A DNA stretch of 64,000 nt from a virus. The stretch lies in the UHGV virus genome UHGV-1374897; one strand, written 5' to 3'. Position numbers and translations under genes: made by a program. Of this stretch, positions 10,229 through 57,000 are shown piece by piece (positions within the stretch are counted from its first letter, which is position 1; the number at the start of each line of letters is the position of its first letter). The notes below the pieces were generated by a model, which saw only the letters and a program-made list of their open reading frames with translations, was not told where the DNA came from and did no database searches.

Positions 10229-10714
10229 CTAACAGAGTTTAACAGAGGCCTAACATTGGCTCTGTGATAGTTAAGTGCTTTAGATTGAACCGCTTCTGAA
10301 ATCCTAACACTTAACATTGATACCATTGAATATTATATACGTATATAGGGAACCCTATACCCCTTTTCTTATAAAAAAATATTAAAAATAAATATGTATT
10401 ATGTTATGTTATTTTAGAAAAAAGGACGCTACTACCGTTTCACTATCAATCACTTATGACCTAACAATAACTAATTGACACCTCTGTTAGCCCCGGAACC
10501 CACGGAACCCAGAATCCACGGAATAACAGAAGCAAGTTCCTCATAATCAATGGACTTCTCAAATCCTAACAGAGGTGTCAAAAACTTATCAATCAGCCGA
10601 AAACTCTGTTAGGGTCTGTGTTAAAACGAGCAACCTCAATAGGTTACAACTACCAAAGAATTGGAACAGAGGGCACCTTTGTCCCAATCCTAACACAATA
10701 ACACAATAACAGAC
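10229..10714. promoter_or_regulatory. Cluster of CTAACAGAG sites, including a 16-bp IR TTGACACCTCTGTTAG (10475-10490) / CTAACAGAGGTGTCAA (10566-10581), plus CACGGAAC repeats (10494-10525), upstream of the first replication-module gene
   Basis: Motif copies at 10229, 10241, 10482, 10566, 10604 and 10688. Confidence 0.45.
10323..10432. promoter_or_regulatory. AT-rich tract (candidate DNA-unwinding element)
   Basis: ttataaaaaaatattaaaaataaatatgtattatgttatgttattttagaaaaaag, in an otherwise roughly 50% GC genome. Confidence 0.4.
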
Positions 10715-38289: not shown

Positions 38290-39306
38290 ATGAACGACGA
38301 ACCAAATTGTTGGACCTGCGCATACCGTGACCTCCCTGAAACCGCGGAACCCTGCGCCAGTTGTGACATGTACTTTAGCCACTTTGAATCCAGTGAACCC
38401 ACGGAATCCACGGACACCGCGGCAAGCGAGGATGCACGGAGGTGCTCCCTCTGCAAATTCCGTGATACCTTGCTGGTGCAATCCCCCTGCCAGAAGTGTG
38501 CTCTCACTCCCGGACTTCCCAGCTTCACCTCCGATACCAACAAATTGGTAGAGATGGAGATGATGAAGCGGGAAGAAGCAAAGCAGAAGGAAGCCAAGAT
38601 GGCTGGTCCTACCTGTCTGACATGTAAACATAAGGGGGTATCTATCGAAGAGGAACCCTGCATCTCCTGCAACGGCTATCAGAATTATACCCCAGATGAA
38701 TCTGCGCCATGTGCCGAAGGTACGGACGAGAACGATGATGTCATCGAACCGTGCAATACTTGCACTCACCGGGATAACCTCCGTTGCAATCCTCCATGCT
38801 CTCATTGCCAACAGGAGCGGGGAATTGAGTACCCGGAATATGAAGAAGCGGAAGAGGATGAAGAGGATGTCCTCTCCCCCTGCGCTACCTGTAAGTACGG
38901 GGACTTGCCCGGAACCACGGGACCCTGTGCTTCCTGTTTCGACGAGGGGCTGGACCATCCATTGAACTACGAGGAAGCCACGGAATCCGGGGACGAAGGC
39001 ACCGTGGGTTCCGGAATCAAAGGAATCGTGCCACAGCATATTGTTGATATGTTTACCGAAAGAGTGAAGCAAGCGGCCCTCCGGTTCGTGAACGAATGCA
39101 ATGCCCATCCACGTCCTTGCCCGTACTGCGGAGAAATCCCGGAGGTCGTAGAGGAAGCCATCTACCCCGGAGAGAAACATTGCTACGTCGTCTGCAACGG
39201 GGCCAAGCTTCTTCCTCATAGCATTTCCATTCATGGCCGCACTCGCGAAGAAGCGGCGGCCCACTGGAATAGCTTCGTATTAACTATGAAGTCCCAAGAA
39301 AAATGA
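38290..39306 (+). CDS. multi-zinc-ribbon protein: at least six repeated C-x2-C...(P)C-x2-C units (338 aa)
   Basis: CWTCAYRD..CASCDMY; CSLCKFRD..CQKCA; CLTCKHKG..CISCNGY; CNTCTHRD..CSHCQQ; CATCKYGD..CASCF; CPYCGE..CYVVCNG. Confidence 0.55.
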   Translation: MNDEPNCWTCAYRDLPETAEPCASCDMYFSHFESSEPTESTDTAASEDARRCSLCKFRDTLLVQSPCQKCALTPGLPSFTSDTNKLVEMEMMKREEAKQKEAKMAGPTCLTCKHKGVSIEEEPCISCNGYQNYTPDESAPCAEGTDENDDVIEPCNTCTHRDNLRCNPPCSHCQQERGIEYPEYEEAEEDEEDVLSPCATCKYGDLPGTTGPCASCFDEGLDHPLNYEEATESGDEGTVGSGIKGIVPQHIVDMFTERVKQAALRFVNECNAHPRPCPYCGEIPEVVEEAIYPGEKHCYVVCNGAKLLPHSISIHGRTREEAAAHWNSFVLTMKSQEK

Positions 39307-39724: not shown

Positions 39725-40201
39725 ATGAGAACCAATAGTAGAGGACTAATCGTCCATCCCGGATTGAAACATCCACGGAGGCCACGGCATAGTACTCCCC
39801 CGGTAAAGAATATACCGAAGGGCTACATTGCCACCGGGGAGATTGCCGATAAAATTGGGAGAAGCTCCGTGTGGGTAATTCACGCCCTGAACCGATTGAA
39901 GGTCAAACACGTTCGTTGCGGCCACACCATGTACTGGGAAGGGGAAGGAGCCAATGACTATATTCAGATGCAGGTCAAAGGCCTATATGACAGTATCCCG
40001 GAAGGGTACGTTGATGTAGCTACCGCATTGGAATCTACGGGACTAAAGTCCCCTGCGTATCTGACCACCCTATTCAAGCGGGGCAAAGTTCAACGTGTAC
40101 GGTATCGTGATGATAGCGACCCTCGCGGTCGTAGGACACGATTCGCGTACAATCTGGTTGACTTGTTGTCCCATTTAGGTTTAGATAGCTCTGACGTATG
40201 A
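39725..40201 (+). CDS. DNA-binding protein (HTH), putative regulator (158 aa)
   Basis: Helix-turn-helix-like ATGEIADKIGRSSVWVIHALNRLKV. Confidence 0.4.
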   Translation: MRTNSRGLIVHPGLKHPRRPRHSTPPVKNIPKGYIATGEIADKIGRSSVWVIHALNRLKVKHVRCGHTMYWEGEGANDYIQMQVKGLYDSIPEGYVDVATALESTGLKSPAYLTTLFKRGKVQRVRYRDDSDPRGRRTRFAYNLVDLLSHLGLDSSDV

Positions 40202-40551
40202 GAACGACCTACTCCACAACCAGAACCGTACAGAAGGGCCAGAGCAATCAACAAACCTTGCTCGGTCTCCTTCTGAATATTGACCTCCTTGACCCTTCGC
40301 TCCCTCTCGACTATGTTCGTGTCCTTCTGTACATGCACGCCAATGGCTTCGAGCAGAAACATGAGAATCCGACAATAAGTGAGGGCACTCGCATTCCCAT
40401 ATCTTCTCTTTACTCTATCCTGCGCAAGCTGGAAGAAAAGGGGTATCTTGAATACGAGGGAGTGAGGGGGTCGAGGAAACAAACTAAAAGTAAACTAACT
40501 CCGAAAGGTATCACTTTCTGTCGTGACATCTTCCGGCCACACACAATCTAA
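40198..40551 (+). CDS. winged-helix transcriptional regulator (MarR/PadR-like, 117 aa)
   Basis: ISSLYSILRKLEEKGYLEYEGV wing motif. Confidence 0.45.
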   Translation: MRTTYSTTRTVQKGQSNQQTLLGLLLNIDLLDPSLPLDYVRVLLYMHANGFEQKHENPTISEGTRIPISSLYSILRKLEEKGYLEYEGVRGSRKQTKSKLTPKGITFCRDIFRPHTI

Positions 40552-42885: not shown

Positions 42886-42950
42886 GTTAAACTCCCACGG
42901 AACCCACGGAACCCACGGCCAAATGGTCACAATGGGTTCCGTGGGTTCTC
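42886..42950. promoter_or_regulatory. CACGGAAC site array: three direct copies then one inverted copy (GGGTTCCGTGGGTTC), followed by GTGTCATAC about 17 nt upstream of the -35
   Basis: cccacggaacccacggaacccacggcc ... gggttccgtgggttc; the GTGTCATAC element also sits at the same offset upstream of the early promoters. Confidence 0.45.
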
Positions 42951-42977: not shown

Positions 42978-43005
42978 TTGACCAGAATCTTCTTCTGTGT
43001 ATGAT
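42978..43005 (+). promoter_or_regulatory. sigma70-like promoter TTGACC-N16-TATGAT (leaderless arrangement)
   Basis: Consensus hexamers. Confidence 0.45.
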
Positions 43006-43012
43006 GGCGGGC

Positions 43013-43678
43013 ATGGACAATAACTTCCATTACATCATTAGCGCGTATAACCCCTCCCTTCATTGGCCGGAGAGGGAATCAAACCTAATCCATTACACGG
43101 TCAATTATCTTAAATCCCTGCACATCCCCGGCGAGCGCATTACCGTCATGTCCGAGGACCTTGGCGTTCTTTCATGGGCCAAAGCGGAGGGGCTGAACGT
43201 TGCCCGCGTCCCTGACGCACCCGATGAAGCCATCCTCTCCATCGCCGCAGAGCATGCGGGAATGGACATCATGGTGCTCGATACTCAATGCCCGGTGCGC
43301 GAAGCGGACCTTCTCGACGTTATGGCTAGCCAGATAGCTACCGAGAAGGATGTCATCTTCATCTCCGCATACATGGGAATGAAGCGGGCGGCCATCGAAG
43401 ACTTCCCTGCATGGACCAGTATAGTTGACGGTAGTGTGTGGGGGTTCCGGCACGATAGCGACCTGAAAGCCATTAAGAAAATGAGAAGTATCTATTATGT
43501 CTATCATGACGCGTTCGCCGGACACTTCGGAGTGAGCCTCGACTACCAATACGACAAGGAGGTTCTCGACATCGCCGTGAAACGCGGCTGGGAAAAGAGC
43601 GCAAGCACCGCTCCATGCTCCGCGGATTATCCGCGCCGCGTGCAGATTATGGTTGACAAACCCAAACAGAATATCTAA
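43013..43678 (+). CDS. nucleotidyl- or glycosyl-transferase-like protein candidate (about 222 aa; the track start 43001 lies inside the -10)
   Basis: The N-terminal region HYIISAYNPSLHWPERESN...DIMVLDTQCP weakly resembles GT-A/NTP-transferase folds. Confidence 0.3.
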   Translation: MDNNFHYIISAYNPSLHWPERESNLIHYTVNYLKSLHIPGERITVMSEDLGVLSWAKAEGLNVARVPDAPDEAILSIAAEHAGMDIMVLDTQCPVREADLLDVMASQIATEKDVIFISAYMGMKRAAIEDFPAWTSIVDGSVWGFRHDSDLKAIKKMRSIYYVYHDAFAGHFGVSLDYQYDKEVLDIAVKRGWEKSASTAPCSADYPRRVQIMVDKPKQNI

Positions 43679-43692
43679 TCTTCATTCACACC

Positions 43693-44145
43693 ATGAACAC
43701 AAACCAATTATATTTTGACGGAAGCCTCGGACAGTTTATTCGCAAGGCGAACTACGAACAGGTAAGCGTAAATCCCACGTTGGAAGTTCAGCATGGAATG
43801 TCCTCTCTCATCCTCCCTCTCGGTGCAGGATTTAAGGGAGACCTCCGGTTTAATTTCTCCCATGCCTCTGCTCTTCTTGTCAACGTCTCCCCGTCAAGCC
43901 CCTTTGCATGGAAGATTCAGTTAGCCCCGCTCAACGCCGGAGCCTTGCCTGTATGGAAGACAGTCGCGTCTGGCATGACGTCCTCGGTGAAACCCGGAGG
44001 CACTGCTGACACCATTATCCTTCCTACGGACATCTTTGAATTAGACCCTGCCGAATATCCTGTCGGGACCTACTGGATGACTGTTGAGTTCTCCAATACG
44101 GTTGACTGGACCCGCACCTTCCCCTTCACACTTCAAATCATCTAA
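43693..44145 (+). CDS. hypothetical protein (150 aa)
   Basis: ORF. Confidence 0.45.
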   Translation: MNTNQLYFDGSLGQFIRKANYEQVSVNPTLEVQHGMSSLILPLGAGFKGDLRFNFSHASALLVNVSPSSPFAWKIQLAPLNAGALPVWKTVASGMTSSVKPGGTADTIILPTDIFELDPAEYPVGTYWMTVEFSNTVDWTRTFPFTLQII

Positions 44146-44147
44146 CC

Positions 44148-44519
44148 ATGCAACTTGATTTATCCCACATCCTGCAACTCTACCCCGTCCTGAAGGTCCT
44201 CCATTACCAGACAAGTAGTGGATTCCATCATGAACGATACGACGATGCGGTAGAAGAATTGGGCGGCATTGCCGACAGTTTCATTGAAACCTATCTCGGA
44301 CTACATGGCCGCGACTGGATGGTAAAGCCCATGCTGGTGCGTCCCGTGTTGCCTGATACTTCTACTAATTGCATTATCCTGTACAGAAATGTCATCCTAC
44401 ATGACATCGTTCCCTACCTCTACACCATTGCCGGGAATGAACCCGCGCTAAGGAAACTGGCAGAGGACTTCGAGCAGAGTGCCCAAAAGATTTACGGACT
44501 ACTGAACAATTACGTCTAA
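44148..44519 (+). CDS. hypothetical protein (123 aa)
   Basis: ORF. Confidence 0.45.
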   Translation: MQLDLSHILQLYPVLKVLHYQTSSGFHHERYDDAVEELGGIADSFIETYLGLHGRDWMVKPMLVRPVLPDTSTNCIILYRNVILHDIVPYLYTIAGNEPALRKLAEDFEQSAQKIYGLLNNYV

Positions 44520-44527
44520 TAGAACCC

Positions 44528-45037
44528 ATGCCTACAACAACTCGCGTCCGAGAATTTTTTCTTTGTTCCGACGGCCCGGAGAGCAACCCCGAAGTAATAG
44601 CCACGGTACTTCCAAGGCTTGACGGGGTTTGCTCCCGCGCCCGGTCCTTGACATGGGGCGTTATTGCCTATTCCCTCTCTCACTTCAACCTGCCCTTCGG
44701 GGTTGCCTTGGAGAACATGAGGAACGGTTATTGTGCCCGCGTCGTAGGAACGTCTACTGGGGAGGAAACCGAAGATGGGGATGAAGCCGCCGACGTTACC
44801 CCTTGGTTCATCCTGCAATCCTTTAAGACCGAGAGCGGCGAATGGGACTACCGTTTCATGGCGTTGGAACCAATAGAGGCAGGAGCCGCCATTGATATGA
44901 AGAGGGATTATCTCCTTCCCGATGGATGGTATAAAGTCGGAGAAGAGGTAACTCTTCGCAACGATTTCATCGCCTCCTTCTGTTGGGAGATTGCCATTCC
45001 CGGCGACCCTCAAAAAATAGAAACCGCAAACGTATAG
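44528..45037 (+). CDS. hypothetical protein (169 aa)
   Basis: ORF. Confidence 0.45.
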   Translation: MPTTTRVREFFLCSDGPESNPEVIATVLPRLDGVCSRARSLTWGVIAYSLSHFNLPFGVALENMRNGYCARVVGTSTGEETEDGDEAADVTPWFILQSFKTESGEWDYRFMALEPIEAGAAIDMKRDYLLPDGWYKVGEEVTLRNDFIASFCWEIAIPGDPQKIETANV

Positions 45038-45048
45038 ACGAATAAATC

Positions 45049-45288
45049 ATGAACGACAAAGTAGCTATTTTAGAAGACAAAGGATTTGGATTCTTCCGAG
45101 TAACTCACTGTGGAAGTGTCATTGCAGATTTTCTTTACTGCACTGGCTCTGGTGAACAAGGATATATGACACGAGATTCCGCAAAGAAACTGGCAACGAA
45201 GATTGCCCGCTACGTAGTTAGCAGAGGGACAGTTTGTACCATCGAGGGAGTATCACTTAACCAAATCTATTTCAACACCGATGACTGA
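45049..45288 (+). CDS. paralog-array member 1 (79 aa)
   Basis: Shares the FxxYC...G(F/Y)(F/M)T(K/R)(D/E)xAKKLAxKIA motif with the next six ORFs. Confidence 0.6.
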   Translation: MNDKVAILEDKGFGFFRVTHCGSVIADFLYCTGSGEQGYMTRDSAKKLATKIARYVVSRGTVCTIEGVSLNQIYFNTDD

Positions 45289-45517
45289 CACTCTAAATAT
45301 TACCACCGTAGATGACCCCGATATCGGGTTTTTCTGGGTCCTGCTTGAAAACTGTTGCGTTGCCACCTTTTACTATTGCGTGAAAGATGATAGTGGCTTC
45401 TTCACCAAGGAGCAAGCTAAGAAACTGGCCGACAAGCTCTCCCGCAAAATTGAGAAGAGCATGATTATCGAAACCGAAAAGGGAATCAAATTGGAAAGGA
45501 ACAACATCAATGAATAA
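45281..45517 (+). CDS. paralog-array member 2 (78 aa)
   Basis: GFFTKEQAKKLADKLSRKIEKSMIIETEKGIKLERNN; an 8-nt ATGACTGA overlap with member 1. Confidence 0.65.
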   Translation: MTDTLNITTVDDPDIGFFWVLLENCCVATFYYCVKDDSGFFTKEQAKKLADKLSRKIEKSMIIETEKGIKLERNNINE

Positions 45518-45746
45518 CGATTCAGATACCCGTGTTTATGACCTCCCTACTAGCGGAATGTTCCGCGTCAGGCACAGAGGAAGTTGCGTCGCCGTTTTCA
45601 ACTATTGCGTGGCAGATGAAAGCGGCTTCTTCACCAAGAAGCAAGCTAAGAAACTAGCCATCAAGCTCGCCCGCAAAATTGAGAAGAGCACGGTCATAGA
45701 AACAAAGATGGGAATCAAACTTAAAAGGAACAATACTAATGACTGA
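45510..45746 (+). CDS. paralog-array member 3 (78 aa)
   Basis: GFFTKKQAKKLAIKLARKIEKSTVIETKMGIKLKRNN; an 8-nt overlap. Confidence 0.65.
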   Translation: MNNDSDTRVYDLPTSGMFRVRHRGSCVAVFNYCVADESGFFTKKQAKKLAIKLARKIEKSTVIETKMGIKLKRNNTND

Positions 45747-45981
45747 CACTCTAAATATTACCACCGTAGATGACCCCATTGCCGGATTTTTCCGGGTCAT
45801 GCTTGAAAACTGTTGCGTTGCCGCCTTTTACTATTGCACGGAAGGCGAGGAAGGACATTTCACCAAGAAGCAAGCCAAGAAGCTGACCGAGAAGCTAGTC
45901 CGCAAAATTGAAAATAGTACGACCATCAAAACCAAAAAAGGATTTAAACTTAAAAGGAACAACAATGACCAACGAGATTAG
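45739..45981 (+). CDS. paralog-array member 4 (80 aa)
   Basis: N-terminal 13 codons identical at the DNA level to member 2; HFTKKQAKKLTEKLVRKIENSTTIKTKKGFKLKRNN. Confidence 0.65.
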   Translation: MTDTLNITTVDDPIAGFFRVMLENCCVAAFYYCTEGEEGHFTKKQAKKLTEKLVRKIENSTTIKTKKGFKLKRNNNDQRD

Positions 45982-46213
45982 TATTGTAGATAATAAGAGA
46001 GTAGGAATCCTCAAGGTGAAATATGAGGGAGATACCTTTGCCATCTTTAACTATTGTCAGGAGGGAGACGAGAAGGAACAGTGTTATCCCACGCGCGAAA
46101 GGGCTATAGAAATGGCGAAGATGGTTGCTCGCCATCTCATCCACGCGAATCCCGTTATGACAGAAAGGGGCATTGACCTTTACCCGACAGACTATACAAT
46201 CCAAGACGAATAA
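45965..46213 (+). CDS. paralog-array member 5 (82 aa, divergent)
   Basis: FAIFNYCQEG...; start context AACAACAATGACCAACGA identical to that of member 7. Confidence 0.55.
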   Translation: MTNEISIVDNKRVGILKVKYEGDTFAIFNYCQEGDEKEQCYPTRERAIEMAKMVARHLIHANPVMTERGIDLYPTDYTIQDE

Positions 46214-46216
46214 ATC

Positions 46217-46462
46217 ATGAATGACAAAGTAAGAATTTTCGAGAATAAAATGCTCGGCGGGTTCGAAGTGGAATATGATGGGATTGCCGTTGCCCAATTT
46301 TTCTACTACACAGAGTGGGACGAACGGGGCTTCATGACGCGAGACGCGGCAAAGAAACTGGCAACGAAGATTGCCCACAAAATTGAGAAGAGCATGATTA
46401 TCGAAACCGAAAAGGGAATCAAACTACTTAAACCGAAAAGGAACAACAATGACCAACGATAA
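46217..46462 (+). CDS. paralog-array member 6 (81 aa)
   Basis: GFMTRDAAKKLATKIAHKIEKSMIIETEKGIKLLKPKRNN. Confidence 0.65.
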   Translation: MNDKVRIFENKMLGGFEVEYDGIAVAQFFYYTEWDERGFMTRDAAKKLATKIAHKIEKSMIIETEKGIKLLKPKRNNNDQR

Positions 46463-46706
46463 ATATCTACTGGAAACCTTCTTAATGGAATACCCGCGAG
46501 CAGGAATCATTGCGGTGATTCATCGAAACTACCGTATCGCTATGTTCCCCTATCACAGGAATGAGGATGAGAAGGGACTTCCGACAAGAGACTTCGCCCT
46601 CGAAATGGCAATCGAACTTCGTGACAAGATTAAGAAATGCACGACGGAAGAATCCGACACGGGGATTACCTTCGTCGAAAAGGAACAACCAATCTTCAAT
46701 GACTAA
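46449..46706 (+). CDS. paralog-array member 7 (85 aa, divergent)
   Basis: IAMFPYHRNEDEKGLPTRDFALEMAIELRDKIKK retains the motif spacing. Confidence 0.55.
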   Translation: MTNDKYLLETFLMEYPRAGIIAVIHRNYRIAMFPYHRNEDEKGLPTRDFALEMAIELRDKIKKCTTEESDTGITFVEKEQPIFND

Positions 46707-47136
46707 CAAACGCAGATTCAAAAAGGGAGACCTTGTTCGGTTCATCAACACAGGAAGACATCCCGGGAGATGTCTAGGTCTAGTGGAAGGTTCCCTCATG
46801 TATGTTCAAGAGGTTGAGGATAATAACTTCGAAATCCTTGTCAAGGACAGAGACAACGCATGGAGGCGGCTTCCCTTCTACGAGTTTGAGCTAGTGGAAG
46901 AGACCGAACATGAAGTCTTCGTCCGATACACACGGGACGAGGCTATCATCCTCTTCAACTATCAGCCCGTTCTCCGCATACCTACCAGATATAAGCTGGG
47001 CGACCAAGAGGTTGACATGTGCTGTGAGGTAGAGGACTGGGCTAATCAAATCGTTGAGGACCTTAACGAGCATGTCATATTACCAGATATAAACAAAACC
47101 AAAAACGAAAATGAAAGCAGGACCCGGAAAAGTTAA
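46699..47136 (+). CDS. small protein (145 aa) with the N-terminal KRRFKKGDLVRFINTGRHPGRC motif
   Basis: The ATG at 46699 overlaps the previous stop; paralogous to 47111..47626 and 37764..38171. Confidence 0.5.
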   Translation: MTNKRRFKKGDLVRFINTGRHPGRCLGLVEGSLMYVQEVEDNNFEILVKDRDNAWRRLPFYEFELVEETEHEVFVRYTRDEAIILFNYQPVLRIPTRYKLGDQEVDMCCEVEDWANQIVEDLNEHVILPDINKTKNENESRTRKS

Positions 47137-47626
47137 GACCAGATTTAAGTGCGGGGACATCGTTCGCAGAGTAGATACGGGGAGATGCGGGACCTGCGGG
47201 GATAGCATCCCAACAGGGTCTATCCTCCGGGTAATGTCCGACGAGGATGTTGCTGGTGTCGTTCGTGTCCATTACCCTCAAGCGGATAGTGAAGACGAAG
47301 AGATACAGGATGTCATGTGGTATGAAATCGAACCCGTACCCACGGAAGCCAAGGTAGAAGTAACCTCGGATATAGTTCGAGTTAAGTTGGACACCTATGT
47401 TGTCGCAGGAATTACCAACGAAATCCCCACCCCGTTGGGCACTCTTCATTTCAAGCAATGGGGTGAAGAGATTGCCCAGTCGATGGCTAACATCATTAAC
47501 CTTCAAATCTCATTGGGGAAGCTAACCCCTGACGGAATCAAAGTAGAAAAAACTAATGACAAGGAAAGACAAGATAAAGGAAATACAGAAGTGGGCGGGA
47601 ACTTCACCCGACGGTATCCTTGGTGA
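47111..47626 (+). CDS. small protein (171 aa) with the N-terminal KTRFKCGDIVRRVDTGRCGTC motif
   Basis: Paralog of the previous gene. Confidence 0.5.
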   Translation: MKAGPGKVKTRFKCGDIVRRVDTGRCGTCGDSIPTGSILRVMSDEDVAGVVRVHYPQADSEDEEIQDVMWYEIEPVPTEAKVEVTSDIVRVKLDTYVVAGITNEIPTPLGTLHFKQWGEEIAQSMANIINLQISLGKLTPDGIKVEKTNDKERQDKGNTEVGGNFTRRYPW

Positions 47627-48314
47627 TAAGACCATTGATGCTATATGGAAGAAGATACAACCCACGGTTTCCGTGGAACCCGATGAACAACCCAACGATT
47701 CCCCGGTATCCGCGGCATACGTGTCCCCGGCAGAGCTTGTCCGCAAGGGCATGGCTAAGAAGATTCTCAACATGGAGGATTACAAGATTACCGGGCCGGA
47801 ATCTCTGCGCGTAACTCGCCTCCCCTCTGGCGACGGCGGCGGCACGTGGGAGATTGCCGGTATCTGTGATGGGATTGAACCCAAGGAATTCAATCTAATC
47901 AAATCCATGTTGGACCGGGGCGATAGAGAAGCGGCATGGGATGAATGCCTCCGCTATGTTCTCGCTAATACGGAACCACTGGTTGCCAAGGGAGTTGCAG
48001 GATGCTACGCCATTGAGTTCATGCTTCGCGACATGACCTTCAACATGGGTGTGGCGGGAACGACTAAGGTCGTCCAGCGCATGCTCGACATTGGTATTGA
48101 CGGCAAGTGGGGGAAAAATACCCAAGCCAAATGGACACATGCCATTCAATCATGGGATGAAATGGTAGTCCTCGATTTGCTGGACCGTGCTTGTCGTGCC
48201 CGCTATCATTCCATTGTAAGGGCCAATCCGGTGAAGGAAAAGTTCCTTACGGGCTGGATGAACCGATGCGATGCACGACATGCTTACGCCCTAACTCTGT
48301 TGTCAAGGAAATAA
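47556..48314 (+). CDS. endolysin candidate: muramidase-like core flanked by peptidoglycan-binding repeats (252 aa)
   Basis: Peptidoglycan-binding-domain-like repeats (SPDGILGDKTIDAIWKKIQ; GIDGKWGKNTQAKW) and a GH108-like DGGGTWEIAGI segment. Confidence 0.45.
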   Translation: MTRKDKIKEIQKWAGTSPDGILGDKTIDAIWKKIQPTVSVEPDEQPNDSPVSAAYVSPAELVRKGMAKKILNMEDYKITGPESLRVTRLPSGDGGGTWEIAGICDGIEPKEFNLIKSMLDRGDREAAWDECLRYVLANTEPLVAKGVAGCYAIEFMLRDMTFNMGVAGTTKVVQRMLDIGIDGKWGKNTQAKWTHAIQSWDEMVVLDLLDRACRARYHSIVRANPVKEKFLTGWMNRCDARHAYALTLLSRK

Positions 48315-48327
48315 GTGGGGAATTTTC

Positions 48328-48384
48328 TTGACCCGTTAAACCCCAAATGATAACATGGCGGCAAGGTAATTCCTTGCCGCCATG
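48328..48384 (+). promoter_or_regulatory. sigma70-like promoter TTGACC-N17-TAACAT followed by the hairpin CATGGCGGCAAGG-taatt-CCTTGCCGCCATG, which includes the start codon of the next gene
   Basis: Consensus hexamers; perfect 13-bp IR (48353-48383). Confidence 0.45.
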
Positions 48385-48804
48385 TTTAAATTCGTCGCAC
48401 AGCTTAACACCATTGACGGCAACGTGTGGACTTTGCTTCTCACTCGTATCGTCGATGAAATGTCTCCCGCATATCTCGTATTTGTGGGAGTTATTTACGT
48501 GGCAGTAAAGCTGGCATATAAGTACCTCTCAAAAAAGATAGAGTTTAGTCTTGACAAGGAGAAGTCCTTTCTCATATTATTGCAAGAAGCTCTAAGAGTT
48601 ATATCCGAGTTGGATGATTCTCTAGACCAATTACATGGAAAAATAGACAATCTACGAAGCGACCATGAAGAGATAATCGACCGCGCCTTCTGCGCTATCT
48701 CGCAACAAGATACACCCCCCTCCGACAGAAATGAAACTATTCAATCTGTTCCGAAAAAGCCCCGAGCAGGAACAACTCGAAAACGAGTTGTCTCGGAATC
48801 TTAG
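48382..48804 (+). CDS. membrane protein (1 TM), holin or spanin candidate (140 aa)
   Basis: TM segment LVFVGVIYVAVKLAY; adjacent to the endolysin candidate. Confidence 0.4.
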   Translation: MFKFVAQLNTIDGNVWTLLLTRIVDEMSPAYLVFVGVIYVAVKLAYKYLSKKIEFSLDKEKSFLILLQEALRVISELDDSLDQLHGKIDNLRSDHEEIIDRAFCAISQQDTPPSDRNETIQSVPKKPRAGTTRKRVVSES

Positions 48805-49243
48805 TCAGTTGCAAAAACGAATTCGCGCGTGTGGCGAAAAGATTCATGCACGGAATCAATTCTATGCCTCCCTTCCTCTTGGTCGCGAGGGTGAGCTAAA
48901 ACTGCCCAGAAACCAATGGGCCTATTTTTTACGAGGGAAAGTAGGAATTCGTTATGACGGCGAGACCCTTACCTCTTCGGTTACACAGGTTAAAACTCGT
49001 GAAGAAGTTCAACTGCCAAGAATTATTGACGCGGAGAGAAGCCATAAATTACTTGTCATACGAGGATATGTTATTGACAGGAGAACAAACCGCACCTATT
49101 ATCGGGGCGAGACAGTAAGTTTTCAGCGGGGAGAACCAATGCAATTAACGTTGAACGGACATGTGCACATGTTGTGGACACCCCCGCTTCCCGGTGCAAT
49201 CATGCCGTTCTATCAAACCAATATACATGGCCTTAATTCCTAA
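48731..49243 (+). CDS. hypothetical protein (170 aa)
   Basis: ORF. Confidence 0.4.
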   Translation: MKLFNLFRKSPEQEQLENELSRNLSQLQKRIRACGEKIHARNQFYASLPLGREGELKLPRNQWAYFLRGKVGIRYDGETLTSSVTQVKTREEVQLPRIIDAERSHKLLVIRGYVIDRRTNRTYYRGETVSFQRGEPMQLTLNGHVHMLWTPPLPGAIMPFYQTNIHGLNS

Positions 49244-52118
49244 CACTCCGGCCTCCAACCCACAGCCTCCGACGATACCCATTGGAACCACGGATTCCTC
49301 GTGGCGCAATGGGTTCAGTCCTGACAGGCCAATGGGTGAGCCGATAATTAACTTTCCCACTCCTGTGGTAAAGAACGTGATGTTCTTCGTTGAGAGGATT
49401 GCCAAGAATCCCAGCGAGATTACCATTGAATTGGGAACTCCGTTCGTACCCACCGCAGGTACGACCTTCCTCCCGTTCATGCGGGATGCAGTTCTCGTGC
49501 ATGTCGAACCCGTCAATGAGGCGGCGAGACAGCACGTTTATCGTTTCTACTACATGGTCCCGCCGGAACAGCAGTTCCGATATAACATTCAGGACATGAA
49601 GAAAATCCGTGACGGCTATACGTTGAAAGATACTGCCGCTACGGGTAAGTTCATGGGTCCGGATGCAGACACGGAAGAGTTGAAGGACTTCTACGAGATT
49701 ACACGGGAATGGGTGGAACCCACGGATTCCGCGTATGCCCCGCTCCCTCTTGGCTCGTTTGACCCCAGCAACGAAAAGCTTGACCCTGACTTCTATGACC
49801 AGCATTTCTACACGGCATACGATGCCCAGCTGGTATATGAAGAAGTAGCCCAGTTCGAAGAGGAACACCTGCGCAAGTACTTTCGTAGGGTCATCCGTGT
49901 GTATAAAACCCTGCCCGGCCCGGTGGTTAAAGAGTTCGTCCCTTATAACATTTGGCAGAAGGGAGATACGGTGTGGGATGAAGGTGGTCCGGGAACGTCC
50001 CTGCCCGAATCTGAATGGGTGGCGCAGACTGCAATTAAGTTATCGAGAGAGGTCTGGGCCGCGCCGCTTTGGCCCGTCGATGGCGGAGGGAAGGAACCGG
50101 GACAGGCTCGCATTCCTCACATGCCCCTCCTTGAACTGGACAATAAGCCCGTTAGTGCTGGCTGGGACAAGGGCAGTTATCCGAGTACGCAGATGTACAC
50201 CCTTGTATCTATGTACAAACGGAACAGTAACATTGCGGAGAAAGAGGAACAGAACAGCCTCTCCGGTAATTGTTGTAACCCTGATTCCCGTTTTGTCCGG
50301 TGCATCAATACAACCGTGACGACTAGCCAGTCCGTTGACTGGACAGCGAACGGCAATGTCCCGGCGATTGACCCTCCTGACCCCGGCGAGAACTGTAGCC
50401 AATGGCGTGTAGATTCCTCTGTGGTGGTCCATGAAGGATATAGCCACAAGGAAACGCGAAAGAGTTGCACCACCTACGACCAGATTGATGAATTCTGGGA
50501 ATCCTCGTTTGACAGGATAACCAATCAGGTCTATCCTGTACTGCGGAAGATTGTACATAATCCGAGCACTGACTTCGATACCGATTGGCAGAAGGAAGGA
50601 TTCACCAAATACACGGATGCCGTGGGCAATACCTACTATGGCCGGAAGCTGGAAACCCCGGAAACCGAGGAAGCCATTACCATCCCCGACACGCCGTGGA
50701 CCAAAATCGGATATAACCTTTCTGACTTTACTGCGGTTGAGGATTCGGTCCCGGCCACGGGTATGCTCCATACCATGTCCCTCATCAATGGATGGAACGA
50801 CCCCAGTTACCCCCAGTTCGCGAATACTTTTGCATTGCTCGGCTCGTTTAGTACGGACAACCAGCATGCTGACCGAGGTATGAACGTGGGCATCCGGTTT
50901 AAGGGTATGCGCTGGTGGAACATATATATCCAGAACAGCTATCCCGAAGTCCAATCCCCCGGCACGATTGAAGCAGGATATTATTACAACGCCCCCAACC
51001 CTGACGGTCCGTGGCTGACACAGAACGGCCAGTACAAGATTGGGATGGAAGCGATTATCCGTGATACCCTCTATGCGGAGGGCGTAACGAGCGCACCGTG
51101 GACGTTCCCACTGGGCGTCATGGATGGTACTGCCATCTACCAGCGAGCCAATGGATATAACCCAGAGATGAAATTCTCCGCGGGCACATTGCCCTCTGGT
51201 ATTGGCAACGTATATCTGGATGTGGAGAACGGCCAGCTGAACATGACCGCCATTGTCATTAACCCCAATGGCAATGCCATCAATGGAATCATCCCCATCC
51301 ACATCAACGGGACAGAGGTCTTTAATATTGAGGTAGTCACGACTAGCAATACAGGACAACCCGACCTGCCGGAACCTACGGTCAATACATCGAACGGCGC
51401 GAAGACTAAATACCGTGCCGGGAACTATGTCCTTAACGCCGCAGTTGCCGAGAAGATTACCCTGACCTACGACGGAACGAAGTTCCCCTACTTCCAGTTC
51501 GGTGTCACTATATGCAGTCTCCGAGGCAATACGTTCAAGGTCACGATGAGCGACAAAATTCAGCGCGTCGTCCTGCGCCAATGGGTGAACCCCTGCTACG
51601 CCGTAGATAGTTACATGCAGATTCCGGGAATCGGGTACTACAAAAAATATACTACGACGATGAACTACAGTTTTCCCGCCGTGCTCGGTACAGTTCGTTG
51701 GGTTCCGTGGACTACGAGGCCCGACCTTTCTGGCAAGAATGCTGGACAGTACTTCCCGCAGACCACGATGAAGAGGGACAGCTATTCCGGTCCCTGCACT
51801 GCCGTGGTTGAAGAGGCATTCTCCCCTGACGGTACATGGCCTAAGGGCTGGGGCCTAGGTACTTCACCGCAGTTCACGACGAACAGCGGGTACTTCTCCA
51901 CGCCGCTTTGCGATTACCGTATGCCCGCATGTCTCCATGCGCCCATGAATGTCTCCGTAACAATCGGCAATCAGGATGCCAAGTGGCTTCCCGGTGCGTT
52001 CAATACCACGTTCGCCGGAACCTCCGAGACTGACTGGAAACCCGTGACCTCCTATTACGCATCCCCATGGAACGGCGGCATGTTGTGCAAGAAAGTAACA
52101 ATCTATCCTCCCAATTAA
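49227..52118 (+). CDS. large virion structural protein (about 963 aa), tail or receptor-binding candidate
   Basis: The ATG at 49227 (MALIPNTP) overlaps the previous stop; Trp/Tyr/Asn/Gly-rich beta-type composition. Confidence 0.4.
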   Translation: MALIPNTPASNPQPPTIPIGTTDSSWRNGFSPDRPMGEPIINFPTPVVKNVMFFVERIAKNPSEITIELGTPFVPTAGTTFLPFMRDAVLVHVEPVNEAARQHVYRFYYMVPPEQQFRYNIQDMKKIRDGYTLKDTAATGKFMGPDADTEELKDFYEITREWVEPTDSAYAPLPLGSFDPSNEKLDPDFYDQHFYTAYDAQLVYEEVAQFEEEHLRKYFRRVIRVYKTLPGPVVKEFVPYNIWQKGDTVWDEGGPGTSLPESEWVAQTAIKLSREVWAAPLWPVDGGGKEPGQARIPHMPLLELDNKPVSAGWDKGSYPSTQMYTLVSMYKRNSNIAEKEEQNSLSGNCCNPDSRFVRCINTTVTTSQSVDWTANGNVPAIDPPDPGENCSQWRVDSSVVVHEGYSHKETRKSCTTYDQIDEFWESSFDRITNQVYPVLRKIVHNPSTDFDTDWQKEGFTKYTDAVGNTYYGRKLETPETEEAITIPDTPWTKIGYNLSDFTAVEDSVPATGMLHTMSLINGWNDPSYPQFANTFALLGSFSTDNQHADRGMNVGIRFKGMRWWNIYIQNSYPEVQSPGTIEAGYYYNAPNPDGPWLTQNGQYKIGMEAIIRDTLYAEGVTSAPWTFPLGVMDGTAIYQRANGYNPEMKFSAGTLPSGIGNVYLDVENGQLNMTAIVINPNGNAINGIIPIHINGTEVFNIEVVTTSNTGQPDLPEPTVNTSNGAKTKYRAGNYVLNAAVAEKITLTYDGTKFPYFQFGVTICSLRGNTFKVTMSDKIQRVVLRQWVNPCYAVDSYMQIPGIGYYKKYTTTMNYSFPAVLGTVRWVPWTTRPDLSGKNAGQYFPQTTMKRDSYSGPCTAVVEEAFSPDGTWPKGWGLGTSPQFTTNSGYFSTPLCDYRMPACLHAPMNVSVTIGNQDAKWLPGAFNTTFAGTSETDWKPVTSYYASPWNGGMLCKKVTIYPPN

Positions 52119-54069: not shown

Positions 54070-57000
54070 ATGGCCATTGACTTTAGTACCGCCAATATGT
54101 CCGACTTCACTCCGAAGTCGGGAAGCAGTATTGCACGTGAACAGCGAGCCGTAGAAAGGCACGCCGCGTGGCAAGAGACGCAAGCGCAGAAACAAGAAGA
54201 CAGAAAACAGAAAGCACTGGACCGCGAGCAAAGGCTAGCGGAAAAGAGACAGACCCGTGCGGAGAAAGCCGCAGAAGCCACCGCAGAGTTTGACACCTTT
54301 ATCGTTAAGTCCGTGGATGCCTTTGCGGAGAAACAGAAAAAGGATGCGGAACACGCGAAGAATGTAGAATGGCAAGATAAATCCCGCGCCCATACGGAAC
54401 AAGAATGGAAAACCGCCGAGGAAAATAAAGCCCTCGACATCTTGAACAAAGGAAACCGTGGGTACAGCTTTGAGGGAATCGACTACATGAAAGACTATGT
54501 AGAGCGCGGAGAGGATGCACTGGTTGATTTGACGGCCGCCGCTCGTGGCGATAAGGATGCTATTAAAAAGATTACGAATAATACGGGCATCGTCGCAGTC
54601 CTTTCCTCCGAACTTCCTCCCCAACATTCTGCATTCTTATCCCGCTCTGGCTTCGGAAGTGGAGAGGACGGGAACCCCGTCGTAACGGAAAAGTTCCTCG
54701 CTATTGCCGCGGACAGAAACCGTAACGCAAAGGCGGTGGCCAAATCCATTGCCACCACAATGGAGAAGGCCCGGAAGGATTACCTCAACAAGAATCTAGA
54801 TGTTGTGTCTGGTAAACCTACGGCACAAGCCATCGAGACCGCACCTATTGCTTACACCGCAGAAGAAATAGAAAGCGTCATCAATACGATTAGGCGCGAA
54901 GACATTGGCAACTATCGTGCCGCTAAGGCTCTTTACGACAAACACCGCTCTTCTTCGACGGAGGGCGTGCAGAAGAAAACCCCCAGCCAAACGAGCGTGG
55001 GGGAGCTTGGCGTTGGCGAATTCTCTGATTCAGCACCTTCATTTACTGGGAATGTTTTTGCTGAACTCGCCAACCTTTCCAAGTCTCCCAGCAAAATGTT
55101 CCGACTTGTCCGCGACTACGGGGATTACCTGTCCCGGAGTACGGAAGATATTAAATCCCCGGAAGCCAAGGAATCCGATTCCCTTTCTCCCGCCGCTAAA
55201 CGTGCAGGGGAAATGGCAGTAGCGCAGGTTAAAGCCGTGGACAACATTGTCTCGCGGATGGAAGAGAGCTACACCGGATTGGATGCCGTGGGACTAAGGG
55301 ATGCTCTCCTTAACCCCGAAGCAGTAGCTTCTGCGGCATTGGCCCTTGCCCCCGGCGTGGACATGGATGCAGTGCGCGAACGAGCAAATACCTTAGCCAC
55401 CGAGCGTCATGCCGTGGTAACCTCCGACTACCAGAAAGCAATGGCTGATGCCATGATGGAAGAATTGGCTACAAGGTTTCCGGGGGTTCCGAAGAATATA
55501 TTACTACAGGCCGGGACGACGAAACTGATTCAGGACTATACCACCAAAGCTACACCGAGAGGCACCCTCATGGATGCAGTCAAAGGCGCACTGGCTAACT
55601 ACCGAAGCGCGGCAGGACAAGTTGCGGACGTACTTACCTTCCAACCGGGGAATAGTGTGGGCAAGACCACTGACCCAATGAGTACGATGGAATGGAGGAA
55701 GGGAACGAGGCACGGCTCTTGGGAGTATGGTGTAGTGGGAGGCCCTGCCTTTGAAGTAGGTCCCGAACAGTTGAAGGAATACATGGCCCAGTACCATATT
55801 GAAAGTACTCGCGATGCCCTTAACTCCCTCTCCCATGCCGCACGTATGGGTGACTTGGGCGTAGGTCGTGGCAGTCTCTTTGCGTACAACCCGCACACCA
55901 AGGAAGTTGATACGAACGCCACACTCGAACTGAACCCCAATGCTCTCTACAATGATAAGCTGATGGACCAGAGCATAGAGGCTCTCCGTGCTAGTGGCGC
56001 GGACGAAGGTCTCATCAATCGCACCATTGAGAAGTTCCAGAACCTCCGCAAGAAATCCGCACAGGAACTTGTGAAGGACAACATTGCATTGGACGAGACG
56101 CTGGGGACGCTTCGCGATACGTGGCTTGGCTCCGGCTTGCAGTTCAACCCTATCTTGACTGAATCCATGAAGCATCTGGACAAGCACCTTTCCTTCAAGA
56201 ATTTTTACAACGAACAGAAGGAAGTGGGCAAGAGTGACGAGGACATCCTCTCCGCATGGCAGGAGAAAGGGCAAGACACCATCAACTCTGTTCTCCGTGG
56301 GTTGCAGATAGGTACACACAAGGCAATCGACCTTGGGACAGGTGCCGCCTATGGTGCTCTTCTCTTTGCACAGAATGCAGTTGGCAGTCGTGCGGCGATG
56401 GAACATACCCGCACCCTCTGGGACCAGCTGAACAAAAAACAGGAAGCGGAAGCTGAACTTGTTCGAGGCAATATCCTTGCGGATTATACTGCGGAAATCG
56501 CTAACCTCGGCTACCAAATGGTAGCAACCGCGGGGGCTGGTAAAGTTGGCGGCCTCGCTGGGCGTGCACTGGAACGTACCGCGCTATCGCGGTTCGCGAA
56601 GGCAACGGCTAACGTTGTAGCGAAGCGGGCAGAAGCTCTTGTCCCTGCCGCCCGTCCGGGATTGGCGGGACGTTTGAGTGGAACTATTCAGCGCAACCTC
56701 GACAACCTTGCGGCGTTGAACCTCGAACGGGCAGGAGCTGGAGCCGGGGTAAATCTTAGCATCATCTCGCAGGTTGCACCGAATGCTTACTCCGACATCT
56801 TCTATACCATTTATGATAGGGAGATGGAAGGGAAGGAACCGACTGCCGAGAACACGAACAGGGCACAGAGCATTGCCAACATGCGTGCCCTCTTTGGTGC
56901 GGCTCTCGTATCTACTGGTAGTACTCTCATCAACAACCGCGCAGGTATGGATTCCTTCATGCGTAAGATTGTTGGGGCTAAAAACCTTCGCGGTCAATCT

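Follow-up and report, generated by a model that had tools for sequence, protein, structure and literature searches.

In AP2 domains the exposed sheet face makes the DNA contact through basic and aromatic residues and the sequence carries YRG and RAYD elements, and dsRBDs have an alpha-beta-beta-beta-alpha topology in which the motif T/S-K-K-x-A-K-K-L-A stands at the N-terminus of the helix after the three-stranded sheet. Plastic loci of small genes are known as well. The internal-protein (ip) loci of T-even phages are polymorphic, with a gene content that differs between close relatives, and the T4 internal proteins, among them the injected anti-restriction factor IPI*, share a conserved N-terminal capsid-targeting sequence and a prohead-protease site. 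Many anti-defence genes are early genes. Poxviruses adapt to host immunity by tandem copy-number change in 'genomic accordions'. For SegB in phage T6 segmental amplification of anti-defence loci has been described as an adaptation to host immunity (PMC13096335).

Here we describe a tandem gene array that shares some traits with each of these systems. It lies in UHGV virus genome UHGV-1374897, of which a stretch of 64,000 nucleotides was analysed as a whole (the window). DNA polymerase, helicase, large terminase and endolysin-like genes in the window, together with relatives that are IMG/VR viral contigs, confirm the phage origin assumed in an earlier reading made without database searches (the sequence-only reading). 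Gut phage genomes are mostly unannotated, and gene-content change between near-identical genomes is the best pointer to host-interaction functions. The array is a tractable case of this kind, as it combines an undescribed 80-residue domain with a confident predicted structure and a natural allelic series of 2-7 copies with visible recombination junctions.

Seven paralogous genes in tandem

Seven consecutive ORFs of 78-85 codons each occupy positions 45049-46706 on the + strand and are followed by two further genes, G and H:

45049-45288, + strand: member 1 (type A), 79 aa, pI 6.5; from ORF, alignment and family HMM (E 4e-34)
45281-45517, + strand: member 2 (type B), 78 aa, pI 4.9; from ORF, alignment and family HMM
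45510-45746, + strand: member 3 (type C), 78 aa, pI 9.9; from ORF, alignment and family HMM
45739-45981, + strand: member 4 (type B'), 80 aa, pI 9.1; from ORF, alignment and family HMM
45965-46213, + strand: member 5 (type E), 82 aa, acidic, pI 5.0; from ORF, alignment and family HMM
46217-46462, + strand: member 6 (type A'), 81 aa; mosaic with parts like members 1 and 2
46449-46706, + strand: member 7 (type F), 85 aa, acidic, pI 5.2; from ORF, alignment and family HMM
46699-47136, + strand: gene G, 145 aa; 8-nt overlap with member 7; paralogue of H
47111-47626, + strand: gene H, 171 aa; N-terminal SH3/KOW-like barrel and C-terminal sheet-plus-helix domain

Member 5 starts at ATG 45965 and not at TTG 45908 as given by the ORF lister. 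A tandem array of seven paralogues of about 80 codons had been proposed before, and one profile indeed matches all seven proteins, which align over their full length with G14, V18, A26, F28, Y30, T41, A45 and G67 invariant and with the N-terminal 13-15 residues as the least conserved part. The family HMM gave E 1e-25 to 1e-42 for exactly these seven ORFs and E > 4 for the next ORF in the window, so that the family grouping is far beyond chance. Pairwise protein identity is 23-68%, DNA identity between the array units is 60-86%, and members 2-4 show a 229-nt period in the DNA. Orthologues from related loci gave a dN/dS of ~0.35 (median 0.34; 99% of 453 pairs below 1), indicating that the array genes are coding. 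The two halves of the proteins hardly differ in this respect (0.39 in the N-terminal and 0.40 in the C-terminal half), with no sign of positive selection in the overall dN/dS of either. Reading frames are intact in all seven members and likewise across the related loci, where the ATG/stop overlap arrangement is also kept.

The sequence-only reading had every junction as an 8-nt overlap, which is true of only three of the six internal junctions. Overlaps of the form ATGAnTrA were found at 1/2 and 3/4 (ATGACTGA), at 2/3 (ATGAATAA) and additionally between member 7 and gene G (ATGACTAA), whereas members 4 and 5 overlap by 17 nt, members 6 and 7 by 14 nt, and members 5 and 6 are separated by a 3-nt spacer. 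Translational coupling, which had been deduced from the overlaps, is plausible for the overlapping pairs but not uniform along the array, in a genome without Shine-Dalgarno usage: 11 of 68 starts in the genome carry such a site against 10.7 expected. The conserved AAAAGGAACAAC ahead of the next ATG was dropped as a Shine-Dalgarno candidate because of this lack of enrichment. A search for the Bacteroidota-type promoter pattern gave three matches against one expected, none of them useful.

Copy number and recombination among relatives

Across 29 related loci spanning the site the array holds between two and seven copies, although most of these loci have a left flank of 95-98% identity; a check for constant copy number thus revealed variation between near-identical genomes. 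At least 12 gene orders occur among the relatives, and several of these recur in at least two independent contigs. Type F is the last array gene in 28 of the 29 related loci and in the window, and type E is the first or second array gene in most relatives. Types E and F are near-constant across the relatives, as are genes G and H, which would suit morphogenesis or virion accessory proteins (decoration, chaperone or adaptor subunits) whose paralogues pair with variable structural partners. The position of the array, downstream of the terminase and presumed structural genes on the same strand and upstream of ORFs of 985 and 3218 aa, points in the same direction. However, 2-7 copies in near-identical genomes fit poorly with a fixed structural stoichiometry, and no structural family was matched in PHROGs or by fold in BFVD. 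The label 'structural module' is itself our inference, because the neighbouring genes are unannotated too; the ORFs of 3218, 756 and 418 aa had no PDB sequence match. We consider such a virion role quite unlikely, and the array proteins are probably not stoichiometric virion parts.

Traces of recombination are visible within the array and directly upstream of it:

45036-45048, + strand: remnant AGACGAATAAATC, what is left (the 3' end) of a type-E copy that was deleted; abuts member 1 on its upstream side
45952-45975, + strand: 24-nt junction sequence AAAAGGAACAACAATGACCAACGA, identical to 46436-46459; unequal crossover at ACCAACGA

The 13 nt of the remnant also end member 5 (46204-46216), and in the related locus L003 a complete E gene stands between a 167-aa gene and type A, with AGAC common to both deletion ends. 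The first 39 nt of members 2 and 4 are identical (45281-45319 and 45739-45777), in agreement with the sequence-only reading. That reading had also taken the shared start context of members 5 and 7 as a sign of recent duplication. The contexts are identical over 24 nt, but a recent duplication of this pair does not hold, the two proteins being only 29% identical. As ACCAACGA is a microhomology common to the E and F starts, and the start of member 5 was created by a join there, the identical context is a recombination junction at ACCAACGA. A mosaic structure is seen in member 6, which resembles member 1 over the 5' two-thirds and member 2 over the 3' third, with a sharp breakpoint at ~46377: 28 nt are identical to member 1 (45181-45208 and 46349-46376) and 46 nt to member 2 (45445-45490 and 46378-46423). 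The 46 nt preceding member 6 and the stretch in front of member 1 are, in addition, 83% identical. In-frame fusions of members with one another, and also with G or H, were found in the databases.

The mosaic member 6, the type-E remnant and the join at ACCAACGA thus bear out recombination between paralogues, as suggested earlier, and microhomology junctions together with the mosaic point to unequal recombination. The array expands, contracts and reshuffles via unequal recombination between paralogues and at short microhomologies. With identities of 23-68% the paralogues are old, so the array is not a fresh amplification. Since exact runs of up to 46 nt recur between paralogues and might mislead de Bruijn assemblers, some of the copy-number variants and fusion ORFs may be chimeras of short-read assembly. 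Together with the free gain and loss of copies, this would agree with an array that has no function of its own, being either debris of duplication that is neutral or decaying or an artefact of assembly. The dN/dS value, the intact frames in all seven members and across related loci, the retention of such old paralogues in a compact phage genome and the recurrence of identical gene orders in independent contigs all speak against it and make this explanation very improbable.

Genomic neighbourhood and distribution of the family

The array occupies a fixed slot in a co-directional gene block of an uncultivated ~70-kb phage whose relatives include human-gut viral contigs. It is followed by the SH3-like paralogues G and H and then by a lysis cassette:

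47556-48314, + strand: endolysin-like gene with PG_binding_1 and PG_binding_3 (Pfam E 4e-10; PHROG 315 endolysin, E 5e-17)
48382-48804, + strand: holin candidate, 140 aa, one hydrophobic transmembrane-like segment; from the translation only

G and H are clearly related to each other (hhalign probability 100%, E 5e-47). The C-terminal half of G might represent a highly diverged copy of the array domain, in register by eye only, and the C-terminal domain of H resembles the array proteins in its order of secondary-structure elements. That G and H are homologous to the array family was not established, as the HMM finds nothing and the likeness is one of secondary-structure order only; hhalign against the array family gave E 0.003 and a probability of 10% for H and a non-significant E of 0.21 for G. 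As the array adjoins the endolysin-like gene and a single-pass membrane protein in the same direction, its products might, together with G and H, be lysis-timing regulators, i.e. soluble modulators of the endolysin and holin-candidate pair. Known antiholins and spanins, however, are membrane proteins, unlike the soluble array proteins, for which no transmembrane segment, signal peptide or lipobox was found in any member. Furthermore, the SH3-like domain of H matches KOW/Tudor/PsaE-type barrels and not cell-wall-binding SH3b. A role in lysis timing has very little probability.

Further features were noticed in the window. A palindrome at 42886-42950 (-43.6 kcal/mol) heads the gene block that holds the array, a wHTH-like protein is encoded at 40198-40551, and the dispersed 11-mer GGAACCCACGG occurs 21 times against 1.5 expected, a strong over-representation. 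Rfam gave no match within 42-50 kb.

A profile search of 1.84 billion representatives returned only 24 clusters matching the family, and look-ups of these gave no informative names. All family matches that bear context are syntenic viral contigs of ~70 kb from one phage lineage, several of them from human-gut collections. Neither the region nor member 3 nor the terminase had a match in 50,697 GenBank phage records (megablast/tblastn), and the only matches of the DNA polymerase in these records were ~25% identical. No relative was detected in 185,579 species genomes, which therefore offer no prophage or host clue. For the nine proteins scanned, Pfam, PHROG, NCBIfam and PADLOC gave no match at E < 0.01 but only sub-threshold noise; PADLOC covers defence systems, and neither it nor PHROGs gave a hit for the array proteins. 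An HMM search of PDB sequences with the family reached a best E of 0.14, and Foldseek against the BFVD viral structures found no match with E < 0.09. The suspicion that the family is undescribed was thus substantiated, and within the collections searched it is confined to one phage lineage and previously undescribed.

Predicted fold, charge and comparison with known systems

An AlphaFold2 model of member 3 (pLDDT 82) has the element order strand, strand, strand, short strand bridge, helix, strand, strand. Each array protein is accordingly predicted to form a three-stranded antiparallel sheet on one long amphipathic helix, with a small hairpin after it. Conservation is seen in the residues that face the core and in the helix N-cap T-[KR]-x-x-A, while the exposed sheet face varies between paralogues. 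A C-terminal basic motif, FFTKxQAKKLAxKLARKIEKS..IETEKGIKL..RNN, had been ascribed to all seven members; it is essentially intact in members 2, 3, 4 and 6 but not in 1, 5 and 7, where T-[KR]-x-x-A and the hydrophobic pattern alone remain. In types A, B, C and A' the surface of the helix is rich in Lys/Arg and conserved, the Lys-rich helix being read directly from the alignments. Members 3, 4 and 6 combine such a helix with a pI of 9.1-9.9; members 2, 5 and 7 are net acidic, with pI 4.9-5.2, and member 1, at pI 6.5, is close to neutral.

The model shows the three-stranded antiparallel sheet and C-terminal helix of the AP2/ERF fold (PF00847). At the sequence level AP2 membership was rejected: PF00847 was reported for none of 122 members even at E <= 1, and the family reached an hhalign probability of 0.1% with five solved AP2 domains. 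The commonest weak Pfam match was Arm-DNA-bind_4 (PF14657), an arm-type DNA-binding domain related to AP2 that forms the N-terminus of tyrosine integrases, seen in 48 of the 122 members on GFFTKxQAKKLA at the end of the profile. Members in the window scored 12.8-13.4 bits, far below the curated cut-off of 22.3 bits, and the best E among the 122 was 0.013. PKR dsRBDs were weak sequence matches of the family (E 0.64), but dsRBD membership was rejected since the model has no N-terminal helix.

The AP2-like predicted fold, the Arm-DNA-bind_4 matches, the basic helix of members 3, 4 and 6 and the position in a co-directional block adjoining the lysis genes would all agree with late-expressed DNA-associated proteins, i.e. 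small AP2-like or arm-type binders that coat or condense phage DNA and, like internal proteins, are packaged and injected with it, or site-specific regulators. A possible target is the dispersed GGAACCCACGG motif or its palindrome heading the gene block, and the excess of the one and the stability of the other fit this idea. Against it, three of the seven members are acidic, and the basic sheet residues of AP2 are not common to the paralogues. On the sheet, member 3 has R19, R21, H22 and R23, and members 2 and 4 have W/L/L/E or R/M/L/E in their place. Uniform DNA binding is unlikely because members 2, 5 and 7 are acidic and the exposed sheet face of 2 and 4 is not basic. Moreover, nothing links the GGAACCCACGG motif to the array proteins, the wHTH-like protein being an equally good candidate for binding it, and a conserved N-terminal targeting or cleavage signal of the T4 internal-protein kind is absent from the array alignment. 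We regard this late DNA-associated role as unlikely, although it ranks above the virion and lysis roles.

Our best reading, tentative and with somewhat less than even confidence as a whole, is that the region comprises seven separately translated paralogous genes for one family of ~80-aa soluble proteins. The variable members would be dispensable accessory binding modules, the basic helix plausibly contacting nucleic acid or another polyanion, and selection in host interaction (host takeover or anti-defence), diversifying or for dosage, would probably act on their number and combination. Small accessory genes variably present in a plastic locus, as found here, are typical of anti-defence genes but not specific to them. 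Of the putative anti-defence or superinfection roles suggested in the sequence-only reading, an anti-defence role is plausible, and the late-looking block beside the lysis cassette, not an obvious early region, speaks mildly against a classical early one. A bolder version, which we consider rather doubtful, has AP2-like-fold mini-proteins with target-specific sheet faces as a combinatorial toolkit, shuffled by recombination, in a gut phage with a Bacteroidota-like host, each paralogue addressing a different target among the host defences or serving the phage's own GGAACCCACGG sites. If true, this would mean a family with an anti-defence or regulatory role that has so far gone unrecognised and has plasticity of copy number built in. 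More generally, should the proteins block a defence system or bind DNA, they would be a family not known before from phages of an abundant gut lineage; should they do neither, the locus remains a record of how small-gene families in phages are shaped by unequal recombination.

Compared with the systems named at the outset, the array proteins share the predicted architecture of AP2/ERF and Arm-DNA-bind_4, a three-stranded antiparallel sheet on one helix, but lack the YRG and RAYD elements, include several acidic members and have an extra C-terminal hairpin. They are also stand-alone proteins of ~80 aa without a recombinase or HNH partner, and the scan of neighbouring genes turned up no recombinase domain. 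The KKxAK motif at the start of the helix recalls dsRBDs, but it is missing from members 5 and 7. As in the T-even ip loci, a plastic locus encodes small late proteins; neither sequence nor fold links these to the T4 internal proteins, and in contrast to their conserved N-terminus that of the array proteins is the most variable part. The recombination-driven tandem copy-number change of small accessory genes is shared with SegB/T6 and with the poxvirus accordions; a homing endonuclease was not observed beside the array. In those systems the repeats are near-identical, fresh and under acute selection, whereas the array varies in copy number without near-identical units and consists of old, diverged paralogues that have been reshuffled.

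Gene content of the array and its surroundings

The window is phage DNA: it encodes a family-A DNA polymerase, a large terminase, helicases and an exonuclease. No tRNA gene turned up in it. Its lineage is very poorly charted: the phage was absent from the GenBank phage collection and from a scan of one genome each of 185,579 species, and its terminase had no match among GenBank phages by tblastn. Its relatives come from viral contigs of IMG/VR and from metagenome contigs of Logan or ENA, with a typical length of 68-70 kb. Dataset 3300045988 supplied most IMG/VR matches; from their identifiers we infer a human-gut origin for it and for a 7000000071 sample. The host is possibly Bacteroidota-like, with which the missing Shine-Dalgarno enrichment at called gene starts of the whole window (11/68 versus 10.7 expected) would be compatible.

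Genes of the array and its neighbours
44528-45037, conserved upstream gene, 169 aa
45049-45288, +, member 1 (type A), 79 aa
45281-45517, +, member 2 (type B), 78 aa
45510-45746, +, member 3 (type C), 78 aa
45739-45981, +, member 4 (type B'), 80 aa
45965-46213, +, member 5 (type E), 82 aa
46217-46462, +, member 6 (type A'), 81 aa
46449-46706, +, member 7 (type F), 85 aa
46699-47136, gene G, 145 aa, overlaps gene H
47111-47626, gene H, 171 aa, overlaps gene G
47556-48314, endolysin-like gene, PG_binding_1 and PG_binding_3

The seven consecutive plus-strand ORFs at 45049-46706 recognised by the sequence-only reading are present, align over their full length and fit one family HMM (E 1e-25 to 1e-42), for which no other ORF of the 64-kb window scored better than E = 4. 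Their pairwise identity is 23-68%, with G14, V18, A26, F28, Y30, T41, A45 and G67 invariant in the end-to-end alignment, and members 2-4 show a 229-nt DNA period. The 8-nt overlap described for every junction is found only at 1/2, 2/3, 3/4 and between member 7 and the next gene; junctions 4/5 and 6/7 overlap by 17 and 14 nt, and 5/6 has a 3-nt spacer. Similarly, the long basic motif ascribed to all seven is intact in members 2, 3, 4 and 6 but not in members 1, 5 and 7. Members 2, 5 and 7 are acidic (pI 4.9-5.2), members 3, 4 and 6 basic (pI 9.1-9.9).

Among 118 distinct orthologous coding sequences out of 31 related loci (453 pairs), pairwise dN/dS had a median of 0.34 and was below 1 in 99% of the pairs, with a ratio of summed dN to summed dS of 0.37 and equal values for the N- and C-terminal halves. 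Relatives keep the reading frames and start/stop overlaps of the array genes. The members are thus real genes of a lineage-specific family under purifying selection. The antisense ORFs are by-products.

The array occupies a fixed slot between the 169-aa gene and G, H, the endolysin-like gene and a 140-aa protein. G and H are mutually paralogous (hhalign probability 100%), each combining an N-terminal SH3/KOW-like barrel with a C-terminal sheet-plus-helix domain, the latter perhaps distantly homologous to the array family, which reached E 0.003 and probability 10% against H by hhalign and no significance against G; the family HMM matches neither. No catalytic domain was recognised in the endolysin-like gene, and the 140-aa protein 3' of it, with a single hydrophobic segment, is a holin candidate, making 47556-48804 a probable lysis cassette. 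A role of the array in lysis regulation, to be considered with this cassette so close, appears very improbable to us. Further downstream lie a 985-aa ORF (49161-52118) with no Pfam match and, behind it, a giant 3218-aa ORF (54070-63726) matching neither Pfam nor PDB sequences.

Variation and recombination among relatives

When 31 related loci in other contigs (L-numbers) were scanned with the family HMM and each array gene was typed by its closest window member, 29 spanned the site and two were cut off or rearranged inside the array. Copy number, singled out for checking by the sequence-only reading, is not constant and runs from 2 to 7 across the loci spanning the site.

Gene orders of the array
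A-like, F: 2 copies, L028 and L029
E A' F: 3 copies, L030
E A C B' F: 5 copies, several loci
E A B C B' F: 6 copies, four loci
E0 E A C B' F: 6 copies, four loci
A B C B' E A' F: 7 copies, window and L009
E0 E A C B' A' F: 7 copies, L021

Type F is the last array gene in 28 of 29 loci, followed by G and H. Variation affects the A/B/C/B'/A' group, the types with the lysine-rich helix. Because all but two loci have a left flank (43001-45037) of 95-98% identity, the changes happen inside one phage population. G and H are more divergent than this flank (83-99% nucleotide identity between relatives), suggesting their allelic replacement.

Several junctions retain traces of recombination. L003 has a full E gene between the upstream gene and A, where the window keeps just the final 13 nt of E (AGACGAATAAATC, 45036-45048), with AGAC common to both deletion ends. 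The E of the window instead follows B' and begins with the first codons of F (ATGACCAACGA), the join lying within ACCAACGA, common to the starts of E and F. The identical 24-nt start context of members 5 and 7, correctly observed, is therefore a crossover scar at this join instead of a recent duplication, the genes being only 29% identical. Members 2 and 4 do share their first 39 nt, as initially reported. Member 6 is a mosaic that resembles member 1 up to 46376 (last 28 nt identical) and from 46378 is identical to member 2 over 46 nt. In-frame fusions between members, or of a member with G/H, occur in the database proteins P0001, P0002, P0113, P0121, P0122, P0129 and P0138; an example is the 229-aa F-G fusion at 6227-6916 of L003. 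The fusions with G or H, among them P0113, P0121, P0122, P0129 and P0138, are either real recombinants or assembly chimeras, and since exact shared runs reach 46 nt, some fusions and copy-number states may be chimeric. At least 12 gene orders were seen overall, several of them recurring in independent contigs, which argues that most variants are real; that the array is functionless debris or an assembly artefact seems highly unlikely.

Family range and predicted fold

The impression of an unrecognised family was confirmed, as no significant match was obtained in Pfam, PHROGs, NCBIfam, PADLOC or a PDB sequence search; the family is new to these libraries. A word-indexed search of 5.8 billion proteins gave 199 matches, none with a precomputed Pfam domain and only one with a source name ('hypothetical protein'), and when 1.84 billion cluster representatives were searched exhaustively with the profile, only 24 clusters emerged, of which 13 had E <= 1e-10. 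Every match with readable context is syntenic with the window, and the family therefore appears confined to one phage lineage.

AlphaFold2, supplied with a 122-sequence alignment and member 3 as target, returned a model (pLDDT 82, pTM 0.67) with strands at 8-12, 17-22 and 25-32, a helix at 43-60 capped by T42 and a small hairpin at 62-72. Along the strands the conserved residues alternate (F18, V20; A28, F30, Y32), and in the helix they have i, i+3/4 spacing (A46, L49, L53, I57), marking the protein core. Exposed sheet positions 19, 21, 27, 29 and 31 vary among paralogues, and the exposed helix face bears a conserved Lys/Arg run in types A, B, C and A'. The predicted fold looks AP2/arm-type-like, and the commonest weak Pfam match is the integrase arm-type Arm-DNA-bind_4 (48/122 members, best E 0.013), aligned on GFFTKxQAKKLA. 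Pfam AP2 was never matched by a family member and hhalign against five solved AP2 domains gave a probability of 0.1%; the fold looks alike, yet the family cannot be filed there. A dsRBD-like KKxAKK motif reached E 0.64 against PKR, but the first helix of the dsRBD is missing from the array topology.

Possible function and comparison with known loci

Host-interaction or anti-defence genes show such gain, loss and shuffling among near-identical genomes, and we therefore favour, tentatively, accessory host-interaction proteins. The variable members would be dispensable binding modules, the conserved basic helix may contact a polyanionic partner, most simply nucleic acid, and the diversified sheet face could hold targets specific to each paralogue. 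Accessory host interaction is argued against by a position that looks late, by the acidic members and by the absence of a positive-selection signal. Late DNA-associated, packaged or regulatory proteins are in our view unlikely; virion or assembly accessory proteins are more doubtful still.

The 11-mer GGAACCCACGG is strongly over-represented in the window (21 sites with at most one mismatch versus 1.5 expected), with nine exact copies at 10495, 11161(-), 14230, 21632, 29491, 39002(-), 42899, 42908 and 49715. The copies are mostly intragenic, often with CCCC in front and a degenerate second unit (GGAAYCCAC) behind, and could be protein-binding or regulatory sites; the stretch between 42950 and 49714 is free of them. 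At 42886-42950, in a 165-nt gap that precedes gene 43001 and heads the array's co-directional block, two copies in tandem and two inverted ones make up a long palindrome or hairpin (-43.6 kcal/mol, z = -4.97), which resembles an operator or an atypical terminator that lacks a U-tract. A recombination-shuffled toolkit of AP2-like binders, directed at host defences or at the phage's own GGAACCCACGG sites, is an improbable reading. About 6 kb upstream of the array, a 338-aa protein (38290-39306) weakly matches the Lar-like restriction-alleviation family phrog_599 (E 1e-3), its L002 orthologue has a weak precomputed Lar_restr_allev match, and it is possibly an anti-restriction gene.

A specialist would regard the array as an instructive case, not an unexpected one, and nothing unsettled in the field depends on it. 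The kind of locus is already familiar: a small-gene family limited to one lineage, in a plastic part of a phage genome, with variable copy number. AP2-domain proteins have been reported alongside anti-CRISPR loci (PMC10732046), and a precedent for such plasticity is found in T6, where anti-defence loci are amplified by SegB (PMC13096335).
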